A DNA stretch of 64,000 nucleotides from an uncultured Gemmatimonadales bacterium (GCA_963708135.1 OY970192.1:320001-384000); one strand, 5' to 3'. Shown: positions 8,036 to 64,000, counted from the stretch's first letter. Numbers and translations: made by a program. Notes: generated by a model from the sequence alone, not told the origin.

Positions 8036-8605
8036 TCATCGGCGAGGCTCGCTGTCCCCCAGCCGCGCCGCGTGCGCCGCGGGCTTCTCCGCGTCCGGCC
8101 GCCGGTTGTATTCCGCGGATCTTCCCGGCGGGATGCTGAGCCAGCTCCACTCGCCGCCGCGCAGCATCTTGCTCACGTACACGATCTGCCCGACGTGGTA
8201 GGCGGTGTGTCCGAGCGAGCGGTGCAGCGCCTCGTACACCTTCAGCGACACGCCGCGGATCGTGATGGAGCGCTCGAGGTCGTCGTCCGAAAGCGACGCC
8301 AGCGCCTCCAGCAGCACGCCCCAGCCGTCCTCCCACTTCGCGCGCACCTCGCCCGGGCCAACCTCGCGCGCCGCGAACTCCGACTCCCGCTCCCGCCACG
8401 GCTTCTCGCCGTCCGACGTCAGGAAGTCCGTGAAGCGCGACTTCAGGTTCCCGCTCACGTGCCACACGAGCGTGGCGATCGAGTTGTCCGTCGCCGCGCC
8501 CCGGCGGCCGAGATCCTCGGCCCCGAGCTGCCCGAACGCCGCCTCGCCCAGCGCCTTGTAGCGACGGTACTCCGCCTCGATCGATGCGACGATGTCCCGC
8601 TTCAA
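8036..8605 (-). CDS. DUF1572 (DinB-like) protein
   Basis: NSIATLVWHVSGNLKSRFTDFLTSDGEKPWRERESEF..HTAYHVGQIVY. Confidence 0.88.
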   Translation of the reverse strand: MKRDIVASIEAEYRRYKALGEAAFGQLGAEDLGRRGAATDNSIATLVWHVSGNLKSRFTDFLTSDGEKPWRERESEFAAREVGPGEVRAKWEDGWGVLLEALASLSDDDLERSITIRGVSLKVYEALHRSLGHTAYHVGQIVYVSKMLRGGEWSWLSIPPGRSAEYNRRPDAEKPAAHAARLGDSEPRR

Positions 8606-8699
8606 CGTTCACCTCCCGGATAGGTGCGGGCGCCCGGGTCCCGGCGCGCGTCCGACATCGCGTGTGGTCGAGTCGCCATGACGCTCCCGATCGACCCGA

Positions 8700-8812
8700 A
8701 GCGCTACAACGGGTCCAGAGAACCTCCGACTCCGTCAACCCGTACAGGCGGAGGCACCGCGACCCCCAACAGCCCCAACATCAGGTAGATCTGACCGCCG
8801 TGATGGATCTCA
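8700..8812 (-). pseudogene. C-terminal fragment of a DinB-family gene
   Basis: EIHHGGQIYLMLGLLGVAVPP, then frameshift to LYGLTESEV; 5' part missing. Confidence 0.65.
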
Positions 8813-8927
8813 GCCGAACCGCTGCCGAAACCCCACAAGCGGCCGATGTCAGGCCGGCATGCCTCCAACGTCGCGTGGAAATCGGCGAGCGCCCGGGACT
8901 CAGGGCAGTCCAACCCCCTGGGAACCC

Positions 8928-8966
8928 TTGCCTCGGACCCCGGGTAGTTATTACCATCGTGATAAC
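8928..8966 (+). promoter_or_regulatory. putative promoter/operator of the AbrB-Doc module
   Basis: TTGCCT-18nt-TACCAT; imperfect palindrome GTTATTAC-4nt-GTGATAAC at 8947-8966. Confidence 0.5.
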
Positions 8967-8984
8967 AGTCTCGCGAGGACTCCG

Positions 8985-9212
8985 ATGCCCAAGCAGACCA
9001 CCATTCGTGCGATCGGCAACTCGGCCGGTACGACCATTCCGAAGCCCATGCTCGAGCGATATCATCTGGCGGAAGGCGATACCGTCCATTTGGTCGAGAC
9101 CGAGGAGGGCATCCTGATCACTCCCTTTGATCCCAGCTTTGACGAAGCTATGGAGATCTACGCCGACGGTGCCAAGCGGTACCGCAACGCCATGCGTGAA
9201 CTCTCCAGGTGA
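8985..9212 (+). CDS. AbrB/MazE/SpoVT-family antitoxin
   Basis: IRAIGNSAGTTIPKPMLERYHLAEGD..YRNAMRELS; GAGGA RBS. Confidence 0.9.
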   Translation: MPKQTTIRAIGNSAGTTIPKPMLERYHLAEGDTVHLVETEEGILITPFDPSFDEAMEIYADGAKRYRNAMRELSR

Positions 9213-9604
9213 ATGAGCCTCGTTGGCTGACTCCCACCTACGTCCTCGCCATCCACGCGGATCAGATCCAGGCCCACGGAGGCGCTGTCGGACTGCGCGA
9301 CCGTGGGCTCCTCGAATCTGCGCTCCAACGGCCCCGCAACCGACTTCACTACGACCCGGACTCCGACCTTTCGACTCTGGCCGCGGCCTACGGCTTCGGC
9401 ATCGCGCGCGACCATCCCTTCAGCGATGGAAACAAGCGCGTGTCCTTTCAGGCCATGTATCTCTTCCTGGGCCTGAACGGCTTCCGCATCGACGTTGCCG
9501 AGGAAGAAGTCGTCACCACCATGCTCGCTCTGGCAAGTGGTGATCTCGATGAGCCGTCTCTGGCTGCTTGGCTCCGCGATCATATCACCCCACGTTCGCC
9601 CTGA
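9209..9604 (+). CDS. doc: death-on-curing (Doc/Fic) toxin
   Basis: GLRDRGLLESALQRP, Fic motif HPFSDGNKR; GTGA overlap with the antitoxin. Confidence 0.92.
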   Translation: MNEPRWLTPTYVLAIHADQIQAHGGAVGLRDRGLLESALQRPRNRLHYDPDSDLSTLAAAYGFGIARDHPFSDGNKRVSFQAMYLFLGLNGFRIDVAEEEVVTTMLALASGDLDEPSLAAWLRDHITPRSP

Positions 9605-9625
9605 TCTGCTCCGCCACGGCATGGC

Positions 9626-9721
9626 GGTTAACGTTTCCAGGTGAGCGACGCCCGCCGCATGGGGGGTGTCCCGTAGGGGCGTAGCGGCGAACGCCGCTTA
9701 GCCGCTCACCGTGTGTTATGT
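9626..9721. other. attC-like integron cassette recombination site
   Basis: GGTTAAC-gtttcca-GGTGAGCG...CGCTCACC-gtgt-GTTATGT; 96-bp imperfect palindrome with inner hairpin AGCGGCG-aa-CGCCGCT. Spacer asymmetry favours the minus orientation. Confidence 0.72.
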
Positions 9722-9752
9722 GAAGTCGCCCCTCTGCCCGGCTTCAATCGTG

Positions 9753-10079
9753 CTATCCGCCTACTATGTCGCGATTCGACGACTTGTATCGAGGAATCTT
9801 CTTCAAGATGTCGGCCTCGGCCTCTCGAGCGTGGTACAGATCCCATCGCAGCTGAAGGTTCATCCAGAAGTCCGTCAACGTGCCGAAGTAGGTCGATAGC
9901 CGCAGTGCAGTGCTCGGGGTCACTCCCCGTCGTCCGTTCACGATCTCGTTGACCCGCTGATACGGGACTGCGATCGCGTCGGCAAGCTCCCGCTGCGTCA
10001 GCTCCATCGGGCCGAGAAACTCCTCGAGGAGCATCTCCCCCGGGTGCGTCGGTCGGCAATGGGTCGGTACTCGGACCAT
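9753..10079 (-). CDS. higA: HigA antitoxin
   Basis: PTHPGEMLLEEFL..TQRELA..RVNEIVNGRRGVTPSTALRL..FWMNLQLRWDL. Confidence 0.93.
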   Translation of the reverse strand: MVRVPTHCRPTHPGEMLLEEFLGPMELTQRELADAIAVPYQRVNEIVNGRRGVTPSTALRLSTYFGTLTDFWMNLQLRWDLYHAREAEADILKKIPRYKSSNRDIVGG

Positions 10080-10087
10080 AGTATGCC

Positions 10088-10381
10088 TCAATGGTAGTCA
10101 ACGACTTCTACGTCTTCCGGTCCTGCGTCCGTCCATCGAAAACAGATCCGGTACTGGCTGTTGATTCGGATGCTGTGCTGACCGCGACGATCTCCCTTCA
10201 AGGCTTCCAATCGATTCCCTGGCGGAACTCGTAGGTCGTCCAACATCCCGGCCGAGTCAACCGCATCGAGCTTCACCGACGCCTTCTGCCACAGCGACAG
10301 TGGAAGCGCTTTCCGAGCTGCCTTCGTCGAACGACCGTAGAACAGATCCTCGGTCGCCGCATCCCGGAATGATCGAATCAT
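10088..10381 (-). CDS. higB: HigB toxin (RelE family)
   Basis: MIRSFRD..DLRVPPGNRLEALKGDRRGQHSIRINSQYRICFRW..VEVVDYH. Confidence 0.93.
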   Translation of the reverse strand: MIRSFRDAATEDLFYGRSTKAARKALPLSLWQKASVKLDAVDSAGMLDDLRVPPGNRLEALKGDRRGQHSIRINSQYRICFRWTDAGPEDVEVVDYH

Positions 10382-10382
10382 C

Positions 10383-10415
10383 TAGCATGATAGCACGGCA
10401 CCCATGCTACGACAA
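10383..10415 (-). promoter_or_regulatory. higBA promoter (likely leaderless) with operator
   Basis: TTGTCG-17nt-TATCAT ending 5 nt before the ATG, no SD; inverted repeat TAGCATG...CATGCTA at 10383-10409. Confidence 0.65.
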
Positions 10416-10470
10416 GTCAGGTGGGGGTCTCTCAACCGCAGCGGATTCAGCGGCCTCCGGGCGATTTCAA

Positions 10471-12231
10471 CCTCCCGTATTCACCACGCGTAGGTTGAGC
10501 CGATTGAGCGCGTGATTTGGAATTCGGCGGCGGCGTGCGTGGCGCCCGGGCTGATTACGGGGACAGCCCCCCTTTCCCCCGGCGCGCCGCCGACGGCTCC
10601 GTGCTCCGATCGCTCCCCGCCCGAGAAGGCCTACGCTGGAGTGGGCAGGGCCAGGGCGGCGGGGGAGCCGCGGGCCGAGTAGCGCCGGCTCATTTCTCGC
10701 CAGAAGCGCTGCCACAGGTGCGCGCGGCCCGCGTCGATGACGAGCGTGAGTCGTCGGCCGCTCACCAGCACGCGTCCCGCCGCTTTGAGCACGAGTTGGC
10801 GGAAGCGCTGGCGGGTCATGACCTGACGTTCGCCGCACGAGACCAGTTCTGCGCCAGCTCTCAGCAGGTTGGCCGCGATGAGGCTCAGCAGCAGGCGCGC
10901 CTCGTTGGCGCCGAAGCTGTCGGTGTCGGGCTCGGGCGTGGCGACGCTCCGCCCGCGGTAGTGCTTCTTGGGCCGCGGCGCCGACGAGAGCGCCAGCGCC
11001 AGCGTGCTTTTCCAGTCCCCGAACTCCCGCTCGGCTTCTCCCCGCGCCCGGTAGCGCTCCAGCAGCGCCGGGCCGTCTACCTCTTCGGTGCTCGCGTTCG
11101 TGAGCAGGAAAAAATGGTCGAGGAACAGCTCCCCCTGCTCGTCCGAGCGCTCCAGCATCACGAGCACCACCCGGCGCGCATGGTCCCAGCGCCCGGCAGC
11201 ATAGGTCAGCTCGTGCGTCCAGATCCGACCTTCGGCCGGCGGGTGTCCAGGCGGCCGCTTCAGGTACGGCGCCGCGAGTCTCTCCAGGCGTGCATTCCCA
11301 CGCAGCCGGGCCACGTAGCGCACGCCCTCGTCCTCCAGCGTGGCCAGCAACTCGTTCTCCGGGAATCCCGCATCCATGCGCAGCCACACCTGCTCCGCCT
11401 GCGTCTTCGCCCAGAGCACCGCGGGGACCACAAAGCCCAGCGCGCCTTGCGCCGTGTGCGCGTTTCCCTCTCGCAGCTCGGCCGCCAGGAAGTCTCCCAA
11501 CTCCCAGCGCAGCACCAGCGGGTGGTAGCAGCAGCAGCCATAGTGCGCGTTCCACGAGCTGCCCGGCTGCAGCCCGTGCACTTCGACCGGCAGCGAATCC
11601 AGATCCAGCGTGACCTCCGCAACGCGCGGCGCGTTCCGGCCCCGCCGCCGCTCCGCACCCCGCAGCAGGAGCGTGGAAAGGCCCTGCCGGTTTCCCGGGT
11701 CGGCCAGCACCGCCAGGAGCCGCGACAGGGTTGGCTGAGAGGCCAGCCCGGAGGCCGCGCCCGCAGCCCCACCCCGCACCGGCGCCGTCCCCCGGCGCCG
11801 CGACACGGCCACGCGCAGCGCCGGATCGGCGCGCAGCAGGTCCGCATCCCGCTGGTCCGTCCATCCCTGCGCCAGCAGGAGCACCTGCGTGAGCATCAGC
11901 TCGAGGAAGTCGTGCGTGATCCGCGCGGGGTCGCGCGGGTCGTGCAGGTGGTGGTGGACCAGCGCCGGGAAGCCCAGCCGCTCCAGCAGCGCACGCAACA
12001 GCACCGCGCCCGCGTCCGAGGTCAGCCGCTCCGGTCGCGCCTCCACGCCCATCGAACGGTTGAAATCCAGCCGGAAAAGTGTACCTTGTTCTTCACCCAT
12101 GGCGTGTTTGTCGTGTGGTCCGGAAGGATGGTTTGGTTTGCACCCCCATCTTACGGTCACACAGGCAGATGCGCCATGGGCGCTTACGCCCTACACAACC
12201 CCTCCACTAACCCGCTCGTGAATACGGCAGG
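10471..12231 (-). mobile_element. IS1380-family insertion sequence
   Basis: Terminal IR CCT(C/G)CCGTATTCAC, 13/14 match (10471-10484 and 12218-12231); flanks TTCAA / TTCAC (near-perfect target duplication). Confidence 0.88.
10631..12100 (-). CDS. IS1380-family DDE transposase
   Basis: LTSDAGAVLL, LDLDS..VHGLQ..NAHY..CYHPL, LREGNAHT, LRMDAGF, YRARGEAE. Confidence 0.92.
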   Translation of the reverse strand: MGEEQGTLFRLDFNRSMGVEARPERLTSDAGAVLLRALLERLGFPALVHHHLHDPRDPARITHDFLELMLTQVLLLAQGWTDQRDADLLRADPALRVAVSRRRGTAPVRGGAAGAASGLASQPTLSRLLAVLADPGNRQGLSTLLLRGAERRRGRNAPRVAEVTLDLDSLPVEVHGLQPGSSWNAHYGCCCYHPLVLRWELGDFLAAELREGNAHTAQGALGFVVPAVLWAKTQAEQVWLRMDAGFPENELLATLEDEGVRYVARLRGNARLERLAAPYLKRPPGHPPAEGRIWTHELTYAAGRWDHARRVVLVMLERSDEQGELFLDHFFLLTNASTEEVDGPALLERYRARGEAEREFGDWKSTLALALSSAPRPKKHYRGRSVATPEPDTDSFGANEARLLLSLIAANLLRAGAELVSCGERQVMTRQRFRQLVLKAAGRVLVSGRRLTLVIDAGRAHLWQRFWREMSRRYSARGSPAALALPTPA

Positions 12232-12249
12232 TTCACATAACATCCAGTC

Positions 12250-13575
12250 CAGTAGTGTCCCGTCATAAGTCAAAGAGCTGCAACTGGTTACGAATATCGG
12301 CGTCTGTGGCAGCGTAGCCGGGTGTCGCAAGTACCTGTGGGAGCGAGACTTGCTCGAACGGACAGACGCTCAGGATCTGGAGCAAAGTGTAGAGGTCGCG
12401 CTGGATGTGCAGCCGTTTTCTCACGATTGCGACGAGCACGTACACACTGATCGCGATCCAGATTTGCGTCCGCACGGCGTTGGGGCTCGTTCCATAGAAG
12501 CGCTTGATCCGCAGGTGCTGCTTGATCCACTTGAAGAAGAGCTCGATTTGCCAGCGGCACCGGTACAGGCCGGCGACTGTGGCCGCCGGGAGGAGGAAAT
12601 CGTTGGTCAGTAGCACGACCTCGTTGCCGGTGTCGGGATCCCGCGAGCGGATGCGGCGGAGCTTGTCCGGGTAGGCCTGAGCCGAGCGCTGGACCGTCAG
12701 GCGGATCGTCTGATCGCAGCGGAGTGCGGTGGTCCGGTCCACGGGATGCGAGTAGAGCCGGCGGAACTGGAGGTTGGCCTTCGCGCGCACGATAAACGTC
12801 GTACGGGCGCGGTGTAAGCGGTGAAGCCGTCCGAAGTCGATGTAGCCGCGGTCCATGATGTAGATGGCACCCGGTTCGGGCACGAGCACGTCGAGAATGC
12901 GCACGTCGTGCGTCTTCGCGTCCGTAATCCAAGCGTACGAGGGAATGCTGCCGGCCAGCTGCAGTAGGGTGTGCAGCTTGACGCCCGCCTTCGTGGTGCG
13001 GAAGTGCGCCCAAGGGAAGAGCGAGAGAGCCAGATCGATCGTCGTGGCATCGAGCGCGTAGGCGGTCCGGTCGAGCTCGAGGCCGATCGGTTCGTCCACG
13101 TAGAGCTGGCAAGCGCTCGAGATGAGGGGCTGAGCGAAATCGGCGTAGATCCGCCAGTCGCGCTTCTCGTTCGCCACCGCCAGGGTGTTTCGGGCCACAC
13201 CGCCGCCGAGGCCCATGTGGTACAACTTGTCGGGCACGGCGCGGAAGCATGCTTCGATGTCGCGCAGGCTTTCGCGGTAGGTGAGCTGAGCGAAGGCCAT
13301 GCAGAGGTACTGGTGCCAGCACGTGAAGCTGCGCACCCGTCGATCGCCGTGGTAGCGCCGGACGGCGCGGCGGAAGGTGTGCCGCGGCAGGTGAGCCATG
13401 AGCTGAGCGAAGACGGTCGGTCCGGTGTACATCGGCCACTCCCGGAGTGCAGGGAAGCGGCACGATGGACCGGGCAGAACGCGCGCTCAAGTCCGTGACA
13501 CCTGCGAACGTGGCGCAAGCCATTGGTGTTCAGGCACTTGCAGCATCAGAAACATCCGTTAACGGGACAGTAGTG
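12250..13575 (-). mobile_element. IS4-family insertion sequence (1326 bp)
   Basis: IRs CAGTAGTGTCCCGTCA / CACTACTGTCCCGTTA; perfect 8-bp target duplication ATCCAGTC at 12242-12249 and 13576-13583. Confidence 0.93.
12263..13432 (-). CDS. IS4-family transposase (DUF4372 + DDE_Tnp_1)
   Basis: FAQLTYRESLRDIE, LDATTIDL, MDRGYIDF, YRCRWQIELFFKWIKQHL. Confidence 0.95.
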   Translation of the reverse strand: MYTGPTVFAQLMAHLPRHTFRRAVRRYHGDRRVRSFTCWHQYLCMAFAQLTYRESLRDIEACFRAVPDKLYHMGLGGGVARNTLAVANEKRDWRIYADFAQPLISSACQLYVDEPIGLELDRTAYALDATTIDLALSLFPWAHFRTTKAGVKLHTLLQLAGSIPSYAWITDAKTHDVRILDVLVPEPGAIYIMDRGYIDFGRLHRLHRARTTFIVRAKANLQFRRLYSHPVDRTTALRCDQTIRLTVQRSAQAYPDKLRRIRSRDPDTGNEVVLLTNDFLLPAATVAGLYRCRWQIELFFKWIKQHLRIKRFYGTSPNAVRTQIWIAISVYVLVAIVRKRLHIQRDLYTLLQILSVCPFEQVSLPQVLATPGYAATDADIRNQLQLFDL

Positions 13576-13797
13576 ATCCAGTCAACGAATTTCGCTCTTG
13601 CGGCGTTTCAACGAATTCGTTAACCGCGAGCGTTCCGACTGTAATCCGCACCTCCTCGCCGGTCAATGGAATTCCCACTCCCATCGGCGCTCGGGCGTCC
13701 GTCGCCCGCCTGCCATTGCCCCCCGCCCCCCGCCACCCTACCATCCCCCGACCGCCCCTCCGCGGGCAGGCATCCTCGACAACCAGGCAATTCCGCG

Positions 13798-16700
13798 ATG
13801 ATCGATCTCCCGAGCCGGCGCCGCACGGCGCCCGCCCTCGCCGCGTGCGCCGCCGCGCTGACCCTCGCCCTCGCCTCCGCCTCAGCCCACGCCCAGGCGC
13901 CCGTCCCTCGCCGGGCGCGGGCCGCGGGTAGCGTCCGGGCGCCACTGGCCGCTCCCGCCGCGCAGGCCGCGGGTAGCGCCCACACGGAGCACGCCCTCGC
14001 GCGGGCCGCGGGTAGCGCCCAGGCCGCCCCCGCCCAGCTCCCCGCCGCCGCGCTCTCCGGGCTCCGCTGGCGCCTCATCGGCCCGTTCCGCGCCGGGCGC
14101 GCCCTCTCCGCCGCGGGGGTCCCGGGAAACAGCTCCACCTTCTTCTTCGGCGCCGTCGCCGGCGGCGTCTGGAAGACGGTGAACGCCGGCGTCACGTGGG
14201 AGCCGATCTTCGACGGACAGCCGATCGCCGGCGTGGGGGCGCTCGCCGTGGCGGCGTCCGACACGAACGTCATCTACGTCGGCACGGGCGAGGCCGACAT
14301 GCGGTCGGACATCACGTACGGCAACGGCGTCTACAGGACCAGCGATGGCGGAAAGACCTGGCAGCACGTCGGGCTCGACGATACGCGCCACATCGGCAGG
14401 ATCCTGATCGACCCGAAGGACCCGAACACCGTCCTCGTCGCGGCGCTGGGACACGCCTACGGGTCGAACGACGACCGTGGCGTGTACCGATCGACGGATG
14501 GTGGAGAGACGTGGACCAGGACGCTGTTCCGGAACGACAGCACCGGCGCCGTGGACCTCGCCTGGGACCCCGCGTCGCCCGACGTCGTCTACGCGACGCT
14601 GTGGAACGCCCACCGCACGCCGTGGAGCCAGTACCCGCCGGACGAGGGGGCGGGAAGCGGGATCTGGAAGTCGGAGGACGAGGGGCGCACGTGGACGGAG
14701 ATCACGGCGTCGCCTGGATTGCCGTCCGGCAAGCTCGGGCGCATCGGCGTGGCCACGGCGGAGGGCGGGCGGCGCGTCTACGCCATCATTGAAGCCACCA
14801 AAGGCGCCGGGCTGTACCGCTCCGACGACGGCGGCGCGCACTGGCGCTTCCTCTCGGACGACTCGCGCATCACCACGCGGGGCTGGTACTTCGGGCGGGT
14901 GTTCGTGGACCCGTCGAACCCGGACATCGTCTACATGCCGAACCGCGGCATCGTGCGCTCGAAGGACGGCGGCCGCACGCTCGAGACCATCAAGGGCGAG
15001 CCGGGCGGCGACGACTACCACTACGTCTGGATCGACCCGAAGGACGGGACGCACATCATCCAGGCGTCGGACCAGGGCACCAACATCTCGCTCGATGACG
15101 GCGCCACCTGGTCGAGCTGGTACAACCAGCCCACGGCGCAGTTCTACCACGTGGTGACCGACGACCGCTTCCCGTACTGGGTCTACGGCGCGCAGCAGGA
15201 CGCGGGCACGGTGGGCATCGCCAGCCGCAGCGACTACGGCCAGCTCACCTTCCGCGACTGGATGCCCGTCGGCGCGGGCGAGGCGGGCTTCATCGCGCCC
15301 GATCCGGCAGACCCGGACATCATCTACGGCGGCGACACCTACGGCGCCGTCTACCGCTTCGACAGGCGGACCGGCCAGCGGCAGGACATCTCGCCGACGC
15401 CGGCCACCTCGTTCGACACGCCCATGAACCTGCGCTCGCACCGCTTCACCTGGACCTCGCCGATCGTGTTCGATCCGTTCGACCCGAAGACGATCTACCT
15501 GGGCGCGGAGCGGGTGCTGAAGACGACGGATGGCGGGCTCCACTGGACGGCGGCGAGCCCGGACGTCACGGGCGCGACCGAGGCGGCCCGCAAGCAGGCG
15601 GGGCCGCTGACGGTGGAGAACGCGGGCCCGCGCGGCCACGGCGTCGTCTACACCATCGCTCCCTCGCCCGCCCGCGAGGGCGTGATCTGGGCGGGGACCG
15701 ATGTCGGGAAGATCCAGCTCACGCAGGACGGCGGGAAGACGTGGAGGGACGTGACGCCGCCGGGGCTCGGCCCGTGGAGCAAGATCAGCCTGATCGACGC
15801 CGCGCATGGCGACGCCGCCACCGCCTACGCCGCCGTGGACCGCCACCGCCTCGACGACCTCACGCCGCTCATCTACCGCACCCACGACGCGGGCGCGCAC
15901 TGGACGAAGATCACCGACGGCATCCCGCGAGGCGCGTTCGTGCGCGCGGTCCGCGCGGATCCGGTGCAGCCGGGGCTCCTCTACGCGGGCACCGAGCTCG
16001 GCGTCTACGTCTCCTTCGACGACGGCGCGCGCTGGCAGCCGCTGCAGCTGAACCTCCCGACCGTGCCGGTCCGCGACCTGGCCATCCACGGCGCGGACCT
16101 CATCGCCGCCACGCACGGCCGGAGCTTCTGGGTCCTGGACGACGTGGCGCCGCTGCGGCAGCTCGCGGCGGGCAGCGTCGCCGCGGAGCCGTTTCATCTG
16201 TTCGCGCCGGAGCCCGCGTTCCGGCTGCGCCGCAGCAACAACCGGGACACGCCGCTGCCGCCCGAGGAGCCGCACGGCCAGAACCCGCCCGCCGGCGCCA
16301 TCCTCGACTGGTGGCTGAAGGACGCCGCGGCCGGGCCGGCCACGCTCGTGATCACCGATTCCGCAGGCGACGTCGTACGGACGATCACCGGCGCCGACAC
16401 CCCGCCCCCGTACTCCGAGATCCCGTTCTTCACGACCGAGTGGCTGCCGCGGCCGCAGCCGCTCACCACGCACGCGGGCGTGAACCGCTTCGTCTGGGAC
16501 CTGCGCTATCCGCGGCCGCCGGCGTCGAGCTACAGCTACAGCATCTCCGCCATCCCGGGGGAGGGAACCGTGGCGGAGCCGGAGGGGCCGCTCGTCGCGC
16601 CCGGCACCTTCACCGTGAAGCTGACCATCGGCGGCAAGACGGAGACCCGGCGGCTGGTGGTGAAGCCGGACCCGCGCGTCCACGTGCCGGACAGCGTCTT

Positions 16701-63581: not shown

Positions 63582-64000
63582 ATGCTGAGTACCCGATACC
63601 TGCTTCTCGGGCTCCTCGCAACAACAACGGCGGTCGCGCGCCCGTGGCAAAGGCCGCCGGCGCCGAAGCCCGAGTGTGTGGTGGCCCATTCCTGGGTCAA
63701 CAGTAACTCGCACAGGATTCCCCAACACCTTGCGGAGTTCAGTAGTTACGACCTGGCCTTTCGCAAGGCCATCTTCAATGCGCTCCCGAAGAGCGCGCAA
63801 GCGCGGCTTTGGCATGAGCAACTCCGCCAATATGGGCATTCGCGGCGCCTCTCTGCGACACAGCGCGCATTCGTCTTAGCGTTGGATCGCAGGCTTGAGT
63901 CTCTGCTTGCCCCGGATAACCGTGCCGAGCTAAACCGCGTTTCAAACGACGCCCGACGCGTGCTCGGCTTCGAACTGGCTCGGCAAGTTATCGCCGACCT
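63582..64000 (+). CDS. bacteriocin fulvocin C-related precursor (runs off the window; not in the ORF track)
   Basis: GGAGGA RBS; signal peptide MLSTRYLLLGLLA; AHSWVNSN..IPQHLAEFSSYDLAFRKAIFNALP..RLWHEQL..LSATQRAF..LGFELARQVIAD; no stop. Confidence 0.72.
   Translation, partial: MLSTRYLLLGLLATTTAVARPWQRPPAPKPECVVAHSWVNSNSHRIPQHLAEFSSYDLAFRKAIFNALPKSAQARLWHEQLRQYGHSRRLSATQRAFVLALDRRLESLLAPDNRAELNRVSNDARRVLGFELARQVIAD

Follow-up and report, generated by a model that had tools for sequence, protein, structure and literature searches.

Two insertion sequences of unrelated families at a putative gene cassette recombination site in an uncultured Gemmatimonadales bacterium

Why should two insertion sequences (ISs) of unrelated families lie 18 bp apart at what looks like the recombination site (attC) of an integron gene cassette? 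The question is raised by a stretch of 64,000 nucleotides (nt) from an uncultured Gemmatimonadales bacterium (GCA_963708135.1 OY970192.1:320001-384000), hereafter the window, which represents bases 320001-384000 of a single-contig genome of 5.45 Mb with a GC content of 72% (G000; L-numbers designate loci). The window contains two toxin-antitoxin (TA) modules, phd-doc and higBA, together with an element of the IS1380 family (IS A) and one of the IS4 family (IS B). An earlier reading of the DNA, the original prediction, assigned the interrupted site to the higBA unit and suggested that both elements, which encode DDE transposases, may prefer attC hairpins, or else that they had found a safe site beside an addiction module. 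Our analysis points to another site and to a plainer course of events. The two modules would be cassettes of a small stray cluster, into which the higBA cassette was integrated in inverted orientation; two ISs would later have landed in the AT-rich, dispensable junction, leaving both cassettes locked. We judge this joint account to be correct by a slight balance of probability. The features of the locus are the following (window positions).

8985-9212, plus strand: phd-type antitoxin gene (TIGR02609 doc_partner, 61.0 bits vs 55.9; Pfam MazE_antitoxin)
9209-9604, plus strand: doc toxin gene (Pfam Fic/DOC, E 7.6e-18; TIGR01550 DOC_P1, 64.8 bits vs 38.65)
9624-9631, plus strand: R'' box of the putative phd-doc attC, left remnant GCGGTTAA, presumably severed by the hig integration
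9632-12240, minus strand: whole higBA cassette, inverted relative to phd-doc; 843 nt without the IS, 8 of 843 columns differing from the array cassette 3078226-3079067
9632-9731, minus strand: attC of the higBA cassette itself (array type b), intact (nhmmer type-b profile, attC grammar, shared duplicate)
9753-10091, minus strand: higA antitoxin gene, intact (TIGR02607 HigA, 103.6 bits vs 47.7)
10088-10381, minus strand: higB toxin gene (Pfam HigB-like_toxin, E 5.5e-17)
10471-12231, minus strand: IS A, IS1380 family, flanked by 5-bp duplications (10466-10470, 12232-12236)
12241-12249, plus strand: last R'' base (C) and R''-L'' spacer ATCCAGTC of the putative phd-doc attC, the spacer being the first copy of the IS B duplication
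12250-13575, minus strand: IS B, IS4 family (DUF4372 and DDE_Tnp_1), with 8-bp duplications at 12242-12249 and 13576-13583
13584-13625, plus strand: rest of the putative phd-doc attC, with stem arm AACGAATTTCG (13584-13594), loop, stem arm CGAATTCGTT (13612-13621) and R' box GTTAACC (13619-13625)

Both elements can be assigned with ease. The transposase of IS A (10634-12100, minus strand) scores 276.8 bits against the IS1380 model NF033539 (cut-off 180), and the element has the terminal inverted repeats (CCTCCCGTATTCAC / GTGAATACGGCAGG, 14 nt) and the short target duplication that go with a DDE transposase of this family. In the window, the duplication comprises 5 bp with one mismatch (TTCAA on the left, TTCAC on the right); it is present at all five copies in G000 and perfect at the other four. 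The transposase of IS B reaches 267.5 bits against the IS4 model NF033592 (cut-off 115), its 8-bp duplication is perfect, and duplications of 8, 9 and 9 bp are found at all three copies, as in the IS4 family. The two families, the spacing of 18 bp (12232-12249) and the 8-bp duplication of the IS4 element had all been named in the original prediction and stand as given. Because each element carries its own duplication, IS A and IS B are two independent simple insertions. A composite transposon formed by the pair was considered and rejected, as each has its own intact duplication and the families differ.

The higBA unit has a second copy in G000, which lies in a cassette array 2.75 Mb from the window cluster. 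Window positions 9629-10469 match 3079070-3078231 in reverse orientation with 99.05% identity over 841 nt, and over the 843 columns of the cassette the copies differ by seven substitutions and one indel, which leave HigB unchanged and HigA with three amino-acid differences. Five of the seven substitutions (window 9632-10465 against G000 3,078,226-3,079,067) have T in the window and C in the array. The identity begins at 9629-9632 and stops at G|TT on both ends, the end on the IS side being ACATAA|C. At the higB end, which is the start of the cassette, the minus strand reads ..gagagacG|TTATGTGAAATCGCCC in the array and ..GACTGGATG|TTATGTGAAATCGCCC in the window. Besides higB and higA, the shared segment takes in the attC at 9632-9731; the hairpin at 13584-13625 is not part of it. 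The type-b attC profile, one of three nhmmer profiles built from the attC families of the array (types a, b and c), finds this site at genome positions 329628-329720 (window 9628-9720) with an E value of 1.2e-19, and no other strong profile match lies outside the array in G000. The site also satisfies a relaxed attC grammar (TAAC, a perfect 8-bp stem and GTTA within 175 nt). A weak and partial type-a match (E 2.4e-5, model positions 11-100) was seen at G000 177,528-177,620 on the minus strand, far from the array. Since the segment shared with the array ends at G|TT on both sides and contains the left attC, the higBA unit is, as judged from its sequence, a bona fide gene cassette of the window minus strand with its own attC at the left: it has G|TT bounds, a terminal attC and a start complementary to its R'' box. 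The original prediction had likewise recognised a cassette, as the 99% copy with G|TT at both ends bears out, but the direction that it assigned has to be reversed.

The complementarity at the cassette ends had been noted in that prediction, and it is real. The 17-mer GTTATGTGAAGTCGCCC (9715-9731) matches the rebuilt other end in 16 of 17 positions when the right-hand duplication copy, with C, is taken as the original, a choice confirmed by the array copy of the cassette. The match is not due to chance, because the 17-mer (with up to three mismatches) occurs seven times in the genome and six of these occurrences coincide with cassette ends of the window or the array. Other array cassettes also show a complementarity of 16/17 between start and R'' box; the inverted match in the window is thus taken to be the usual complementarity of a cassette start with its own R'' box. 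Mobilisation of higBA by IS A in the one-ended manner of ISEcp1 was also considered and rejected, as the moved unit stops exactly at both G|TT points and IS A has its own duplication.

Which site, then, was hit by the two ISs? We read it as the attC of the phd-doc cassette and not of the higBA unit. Of 301 genomes of the order, 46 (G000 and one unpublished genome included) contain modules related to phd-doc with 65-78% identity. An operator, GTTATTACC..GATAAC, lies directly upstream of phd and is conserved in the relatives. The motif GGTTAAC follows the doc stop codon at a distance of 21 nt in the window and of 26-27 nt at the loci L217 and L212. At L217, GTTAACC is present about 110 nt upstream of phd and doc is followed by GGTTAAC...GTTAACC around a long imperfect palindrome, which constitutes a full attC. 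Moreover, L212 carries ..ctggcGGTTAAC 26 nt after doc, and GTTATGA is found upstream of phd-doc at L219 and L221. Because phd-doc is visibly a cassette in several relatives, the hit site was read as the plus-strand attC of the phd-doc cassette. Farther upstream, the question arose whether positions 8704-8913 (minus strand) are what remains of a DinB-type gene that the island disrupted; this candidate was dropped, since BLASTP against the neighbouring DinB protein gave an E value of 0.83. In G012, the closest relative with an orthologue of the sortilin-like downstream gene (75% identity), nothing upstream of that gene is shared, so that no empty site could be read.

Removal of both ISs and of the hig cassette in silico restores GCGGTTAAC - ATCCAGTC - AACGAATTTCG - 17-nt loop - CGAATTC - GTTAACCGC, 21 nt after the doc stop codon. 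The restored site measures 57 nt from R'' to R', within the attC range of about 57-141 nt. The consensus of attC sites is RYYYAAC for R'' and GTTRRRY for R'. The boxes GGTTAAC and GTTAACC each agree with it in six of seven positions and are complementary to each other in 7/7 positions, or in 9/9 with the flanking GC. The stem formed by AACGAATTTCG and CGAATTCGTT has 10 bp and one bulged T (A on the other strand), and the spacing is atypical in that the R' box overlaps one stem arm. Compared with shuffled sequences, folding yields -14.7 kcal/mol for the plus strand (z -3.5) and -14.1 kcal/mol for the minus strand (z -2.6). The site passes the relaxed grammar, as do 11 other places in G000 (nine array places, the attC of hig and window 63917-63990), a genome in which TAAC and GTTA are rare (912 and 941 occurrences, respectively). 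The place at 63917-63990 reads GATAAC-CG-TGCCGAGC...GCTCGGCA-A-GTTATC and may be a lone attC-like site or a product of chance. Thus, the restored site has the complementary core sites, the bulged stem and the length of an attC, and it lies at the 3' end of a cassette. Its past use as a recombinase substrate is suggested by the position of the hig cassette, which is complete, brings its own attC and interrupts the site precisely at GGTTAA|C. On the complementary strand this point reads G|TTAACC, a normal crossover, because GGTTAACC is its own reverse complement.

The source of the hig cassette would be the array at G000 3,068,223-3,091,053 (L009:8223 to L010:11053). This array of about 23 kb contains 28 non-overlapping attC-family sites detected by nhmmer, which fall into three sequence families, lie on one strand and have the general form TAAC - 4 nt - stem ... 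stem - 7 nt - GTTA; its cassettes are all oriented as the window minus strand. Domains of TA type (RelE, HigB, Gp49, HicAB, HepT/MNT, ParE-like and partners) were found in 18 of the 30 array open reading frames (ORFs) that were scanned. A tyrosine recombinase gene on the same strand (L009:6828-7859, plus; G000 3066828-3067859) ends 364 nt before the first attC. Its product scores 216.9 bits against TIGR02249 (cut-off 265), the match being divided into two stretches with model positions 179-234 left out, and passes NF040815 (225.5 vs 220). Among solved structures it is closest to IntI4 (2A3V), and in the region of the integron-specific domain it has 24 residues vs the 66 of IntI4. The array may belong to an integron-like system that uses a Xer-like enzyme; it works like an integron and does not pass as a classical or complete one, as the recombinase beside it has no IntI-specific extra domain. 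The only canonical intI piece in G000 is a truncated and frameshifted remnant at 2,844,087-2,844,447 (L003:1432-1945, minus strand, about 2,844,018-2,844,531), which covers only model positions 189-228 and 244-310 in two frames and adjoins an ADOP permease gene; the profiles gave no attC-family match near it.

From these parts the arrangement in the window can be explained as follows. Two integron cassettes would form a small stray cluster far from the main array, the phd-doc cassette (plus strand) ending in a short attC of 57 nt whose R boxes make the palindrome GGTTAAC...GTTAACC. A tyrosine recombinase would have inserted a copy of the higBA cassette from the array (3.07-3.09 Mb) into the R'' box, at GGTTAA|C. 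The normally silent top strand of the phd-doc attC would have been used, and the hig cassette's own attC would have been left intact. Recombination of the top strand of a nearly symmetrical attC would therefore yield an inverted hig cassette.

Several points weigh against this interpretation. Recombination of the top strand, although the simplest account, is deduced from the geometry only, and bottom-strand selectivity is the rule for attC sites (PMC11023631). The nhmmer profiles, which detect only the attC family of the G000 array, gave no match to the restored site. No 5' boundary was found for the phd-doc cassette, homology to the relatives beginning only at the operator (8939-8947). In addition, a search of the 300 other genomes of the order with the 70-nt right part did not find the uninterrupted 57-nt attC (best E 0.02, chance level).

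What remains of the original assignment, by which the rebuilt site is higBA's own attC and both DDE elements target attC hairpins? Read on the plus strand, the rebuilt junction does resemble R''(ACATAAC)-spacer-stem...stem-spacer-GTT, and three families (IS1380, IS4 and IS630) are each represented, by one copy or more, in the R-L spacer or beside the R box of a cassette site of G000. However, the unit shared with the array takes in the left attC and excludes the right hairpin, and the array cassettes are oriented as the window minus strand throughout. Furthermore, neither of the two other IS B copies and none of 30 loci of its relatives lies near an attC, and the IS630 family element has only one of seven copies at an attC, which its CTAG target accounts for. 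That element (L010:1447-2617, 1171 bp) occupies the 7-nt L'-R' spacer of a type-c array attC, with the TA of CTAG duplicated, and all five copies whose flanks were read are at CTAG. The original assignment is therefore very improbable. An attC does appear to have been hit, as predicted, but the rebuilt junction is a hybrid whose attC would be that of phd-doc, and the attC of higBA is intact at 9632-9731.

The positions of the ISs within the rebuilt junction agree with those given in the original prediction, with the boxes reassigned. IS A lies 10 nt inside the 5' end of the hig cassette and just outside the core, 5 nt from ATAAC; in the phd-doc attC, IS B occupies the 8-nt spacer that separates the R'' box from the stem and thus lies between R and L boxes. 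The copies of IS A in G000 (five) and of IS B (three) are 99.9-100% identical, the window copies being 100% identical to sister copies. As the cassette copies differ at 8/843 columns while the ISs equal their sisters, the ISs arrived after the cassette. They would have been inserted independently by ordinary cut-and-duplicate transposition, IS A at TTCAC directly before ATAAC and IS B in the spacer. The junction of roughly 45 nt would represent a rare AT-rich patch in a genome of 72% GC, favoured by both ISs, where an insertion would be harmless, as it affects non-coding DNA beside two self-sufficient addiction modules. The landing of IS B would need no recognition of attC as such.

The composition of the insertion sites is consistent with this view. 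Positions 8600-13700 are poorer in GC than their flanks (0.54-0.69 vs 0.70-0.85 in 200-nt windows, the body of IS A excepted), and the 60-nt junction hit by both ISs belongs to the lowest 0.7% of G000 in GC content. All eight IS A and IS B sites in G000 fall in the lowest 8% of local GC in the restored 20 nt, five of them in about the lowest 1% (genome percentiles 0.0003-0.079 for the five IS A sites and 0.0001-0.0034 for the three IS B sites). ISs are piled up elsewhere in G000 as well, for instance two copies of IS A 29 bp apart at 1.84 Mb and a copy of IS B at 1.26 kb from IS B2. Because all eight sites fall in the lowest 8% of local GC, an AT-rich, dispensable sink in a very GC-rich genome is the likeliest explanation for the joint landing. 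The safe site beside an addiction module, which the original prediction had offered as its second option, fits best when combined with this AT-richness.

For IS B, no preference for attC was observed. One of its other copies lies in an AT-rich spacer between repeats resembling clustered regularly interspaced short palindromic repeats (CRISPR), with the duplication ATCAATATT, and the other about 35 nt upstream of a gene, with the duplication ACAGTCAAG; neither is near an attC in G000. The closest relatives in the 300 other genomes have 73% identity, none of 30 loci of distant relatives contained an attC-family match, and the duplications that were readable at the relatives' loci are again rather AT-rich. 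The CRISPR-like direct repeats (..CTCCGCGCTCTTCGGGGCGCGGCCTCATTGAAGC), which were read by eye at L064 (G000 5,134,295-5,138,620) and extend to 5,139,495, contain one IS4-like copy in a spacer. A copy of IS B2, which is 74% related to IS B, lies within a CRISPR-like repeat, 1.26 kb from the IS B copy.

The case of IS A is less simple. Its target duplications in G000 (TTCAC, ATCAA, AGCAC, ATGAA and TTGAA) follow the pattern WTSAN. Besides the window, the copies are located in the ORF of a Gp49-type toxin of an array cassette, in a divergent intergenic region and, as a pair 29 bp apart, in an AT-rich island; three of the four other copies are thus outside cassette DNA. The members of the pair (G000 1,838,895-1,842,445; L223 and L224) have the same orientation and their own duplications, ATGAA and TTGAA, and the island also contains fragments of IS4-like relatives. 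Beyond G000, the IS A clade, defined by an identity of 84% or more, was found in one genome only, G051, among the 301 genomes of the order and the 73 of the family. It comprises eight copies, five in G000 and three in G051. Two of the three full-length copies in G051 are simple insertions inside attC sites. At L040, the duplication ATCAG abuts the ATAAC of a type-b attC, with the position and the IS orientation seen in the window, and an uninterrupted version of this site exists in the G000 array; at L021, IS A is centred in a type-c attC with the duplication CTGAA. The third copy, which has no duplication, directly abuts ATAACAACGGTGAAC (L051:3259-3275) and may have arisen by recombination of two IS copies. 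The sequence ATAACAACGGTGAAC resembles the start (R''-L'') of a type-b attC.

The search for further members of the clade was made in several ways. A scan of the genome contigs with the IS A transposase as a single protein query found nothing, and a search with an alignment of eight transposases returned 39 loci without close IS A copies beyond G051. A metagenome scan with the 17-nt IS A end gave 77 matching stretches, two of which are real IS copies.

Two observations speak against AT-richness as the whole explanation for IS A. Low-GC WTSAN sites number 3023, of which 58 lie in the array and four within 15 nt of an array attC, and the array accounts for 3% of the 20-mers with a GC content of 0.45 or less; composition thus under-predicts the IS A copies, three of which, among the eight of the clade, are in attC or cassette-end sequence and one more in a cassette ORF. 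Moreover, two of the five IS A sites reach only the lowest 8% of local GC, outside the extreme tail. The excess of IS A at attC sites exceeds what composition yields, in a sample of eight copies.

These numbers suggest an alternative in which the IS A clade genuinely prefers cassette recombination sites, be it folded or cruciform attC DNA or a site of replication pausing, with IS B as a coincidental AT-seeker. G051 gave few attC matches by BLAST with two attC types (11, namely 3 + 8, some partial or redundant between the queries), yet two of its three full-length copies are inside attCs, one with position and orientation as in the window and one in the centre of a type-c attC; the copy in the toxin ORF of the array points the same way. 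According to a rough estimate, finding two of the seven non-seed copies at attC has a probability of about 0.004, if attC DNA makes up 0.13% of the compositionally suitable sites and this share is raised to about 1.3% on the assumption that only a tenth of the sites is harmless. A peptide of an IS1380 family transposase is reported to bind the beta sliding clamp (PMC3971601), which could link insertion to replication forks. However, the preference is deduced from eight copies in two genomes, and the profiles gave no attC-family match near three G000 copies (2,869,315 and the pair at 1.84 Mb) or near L051. Distant IS1380 relatives (55-70% identity, about 40 loci) have no adjacent attC-family match apart from L025 and L100, where the match is weak (E about 0.001-0.01), profiles of this kind detecting a single attC family. 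The flanks of both real metagenome copies are devoid of an ATAAC box by eye. Finally, the position shared by the window and L040 can be explained by sequence preference, because the best WTSAN pentamer is found there, in the most AT-rich part of those sites.

We consider this alternative possible, though on the unlikely side, and give a real attC bias of IS A about one chance in four. The narrower proposal that an IS1380 family element of this lineage has evolved a bias for cassette recombination sites, possibly via hairpin extrusion or via clamp-linked insertion at paused forks, appears a shade more doubtful. If it were true, IS A would be the first DDE-transposase IS known to seek attC and might, together with elements of the IS630 and IS4 types, progressively freeze the TA-rich arrays of high-GC soil bacteria with a decaying integrase. 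With respect to the original suggestion that both DDE elements prefer attC hairpins, the flanks of the other copies thus speak against it for the IS4 element and are suggestive for the IS1380 element, owing to the copies in G051.

To return to the AT-rich sink, the insertions have changed the geometry of both cassettes. About 3.9 kb now separate the R'' box of the phd-doc attC from the stem, and the hig cassette has likewise had its upstream partner split, the crossover box of which lies 1.3 kb from the hairpin, with the IS 10 nt inside the cassette. The separation of the R'' box from its stem and the split upstream partner would therefore prevent the excision of either cassette by attC x attC recombination, and both are probably immobilised. 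The original prediction had expected that the TA cassette can no longer excise, which the split junction renders probable.

Could the insertions have been kept by selection, because the locking of a TA cassette is favourable when excision kills or slows the cells, so that IS-disabled clones persist? The growth defect caused by an inverted array in Vibrio cholerae has been attributed mainly to increased excision of TA cassettes, with reference to an earlier study (PMC11023631). In the window, both ISs sit exactly where recombination is disabled and both TA operons are intact; another IS A copy inactivates a toxin gene and not an antitoxin gene. However, a single IS would suffice to lock a cassette. 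Moreover, the risk of excision may already be nil, because a working integrase is in doubt: the neighbour of the array scores below the family cut-off and the canonical intI is truncated and frameshifted. Selection of this kind thus seems improbable, and the harmless landing in an AT-rich junction is preferred.

ISs in cassette arrays and stray cassettes are both well known, and the core of the finding is ordinary in this respect. Under the reading preferred here, the locus would be a clean natural example of inverted cassette integration, the entry point being the R'' box of an attC whose R boxes are palindromic, and as such it bears on the failure of strand choice. It also suggests that a genome of 72% GC offers few AT-rich targets and that the R boxes and spacers of attC sites are among them, three unrelated DDE families being found there. 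Such a compositional route could freeze cassettes with no specialised attC-seeking element being required, and IS A adds a small, testable signal of a true attC bias. The array beside a recombinase without the IntI-specific segment, with canonical intI present only as a remnant, raises the question of which enzyme moved the cassette.

Among known systems, the IS1111-attC elements come first to mind. They have a DEDD transposase, make no target duplication and use one defined position and orientation. The group belongs to the IS110/IS1111 family and is found inside cassette attCs, where it interferes with mobility (work by Tetu and Holmes in 2008 and by Post and Hall in 2009, both via PMC3971601 and PMC12444791). 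IS A and IS B resemble it as ISs inside attC that affect cassette mobility. However, they do not belong to the group, as their transposases are of DDE types, they generate duplications of 5 bp and 8-9 bp and their copies are mostly found outside attC. Group IIC-attC introns are mobile elements that also insert into attC (PMC3001079), and together with the IS1111-attC elements they are the known attC specialists. In contrast to the ISs, these introns are retro-elements that recognise the folded attC strand; none is present here, an Rfam scan of window positions 8400-14000 having given no match at E values up to 1. ISs within cassettes and the targeting of attC by ISs are frequently observed (PMC12444791). 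A full-text literature search for attC together with IS1380 returned, as far as titles and the beginnings of abstracts reveal, no article on the targeting of attC by IS1380 elements, and the excerpts of PMC3971601 mention the two separately. IS A itself is a member of the same transposase family as ISEcp1.

The latter element is about 1.7 kb long, has short terminal inverted repeats and generates 5-bp duplications in AT-rich targets. IS A is like it in size, repeats and duplication; it differs in that its ends and its duplication are those of a simple insertion, and nothing points to one-ended mobilisation. A precedent for the choice of palindromic extragenic repeats by a DDE transposase is IS1397/ISKpn1. 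These elements of the IS3 family insert with high fidelity into the loop of one repeat family, the palindromic REP/BIME units (repetitive extragenic palindromes and bacterial interspersed mosaic elements). The targeting of REP sequences by ISs in general is cited in PMC3971601. IS1397/ISKpn1 would be the model for a true attC preference of IS A; unlike them, IS A occupies different parts of attC (R-box extension and centre) as well as many non-palindromic sites.

Finally, the stray cluster itself has counterparts. Integrons are known in Gemmatimonadota, and off-target cassette insertion has been proposed as the origin of attC clusters without integrase (CALIN) (PMC8618304); integration outside att sites has indeed been shown experimentally (bioRxiv 10.1101/2022.09.11.507474). 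The window cluster is like a CALIN in that there is no integrase near its two attCs, which are 2.75 Mb away from the array. However, the attG route makes use of genomic sites that are not att sites, whereas the recipient in the window would be the R'' box of another cassette's attC, and the cassette is inverted.

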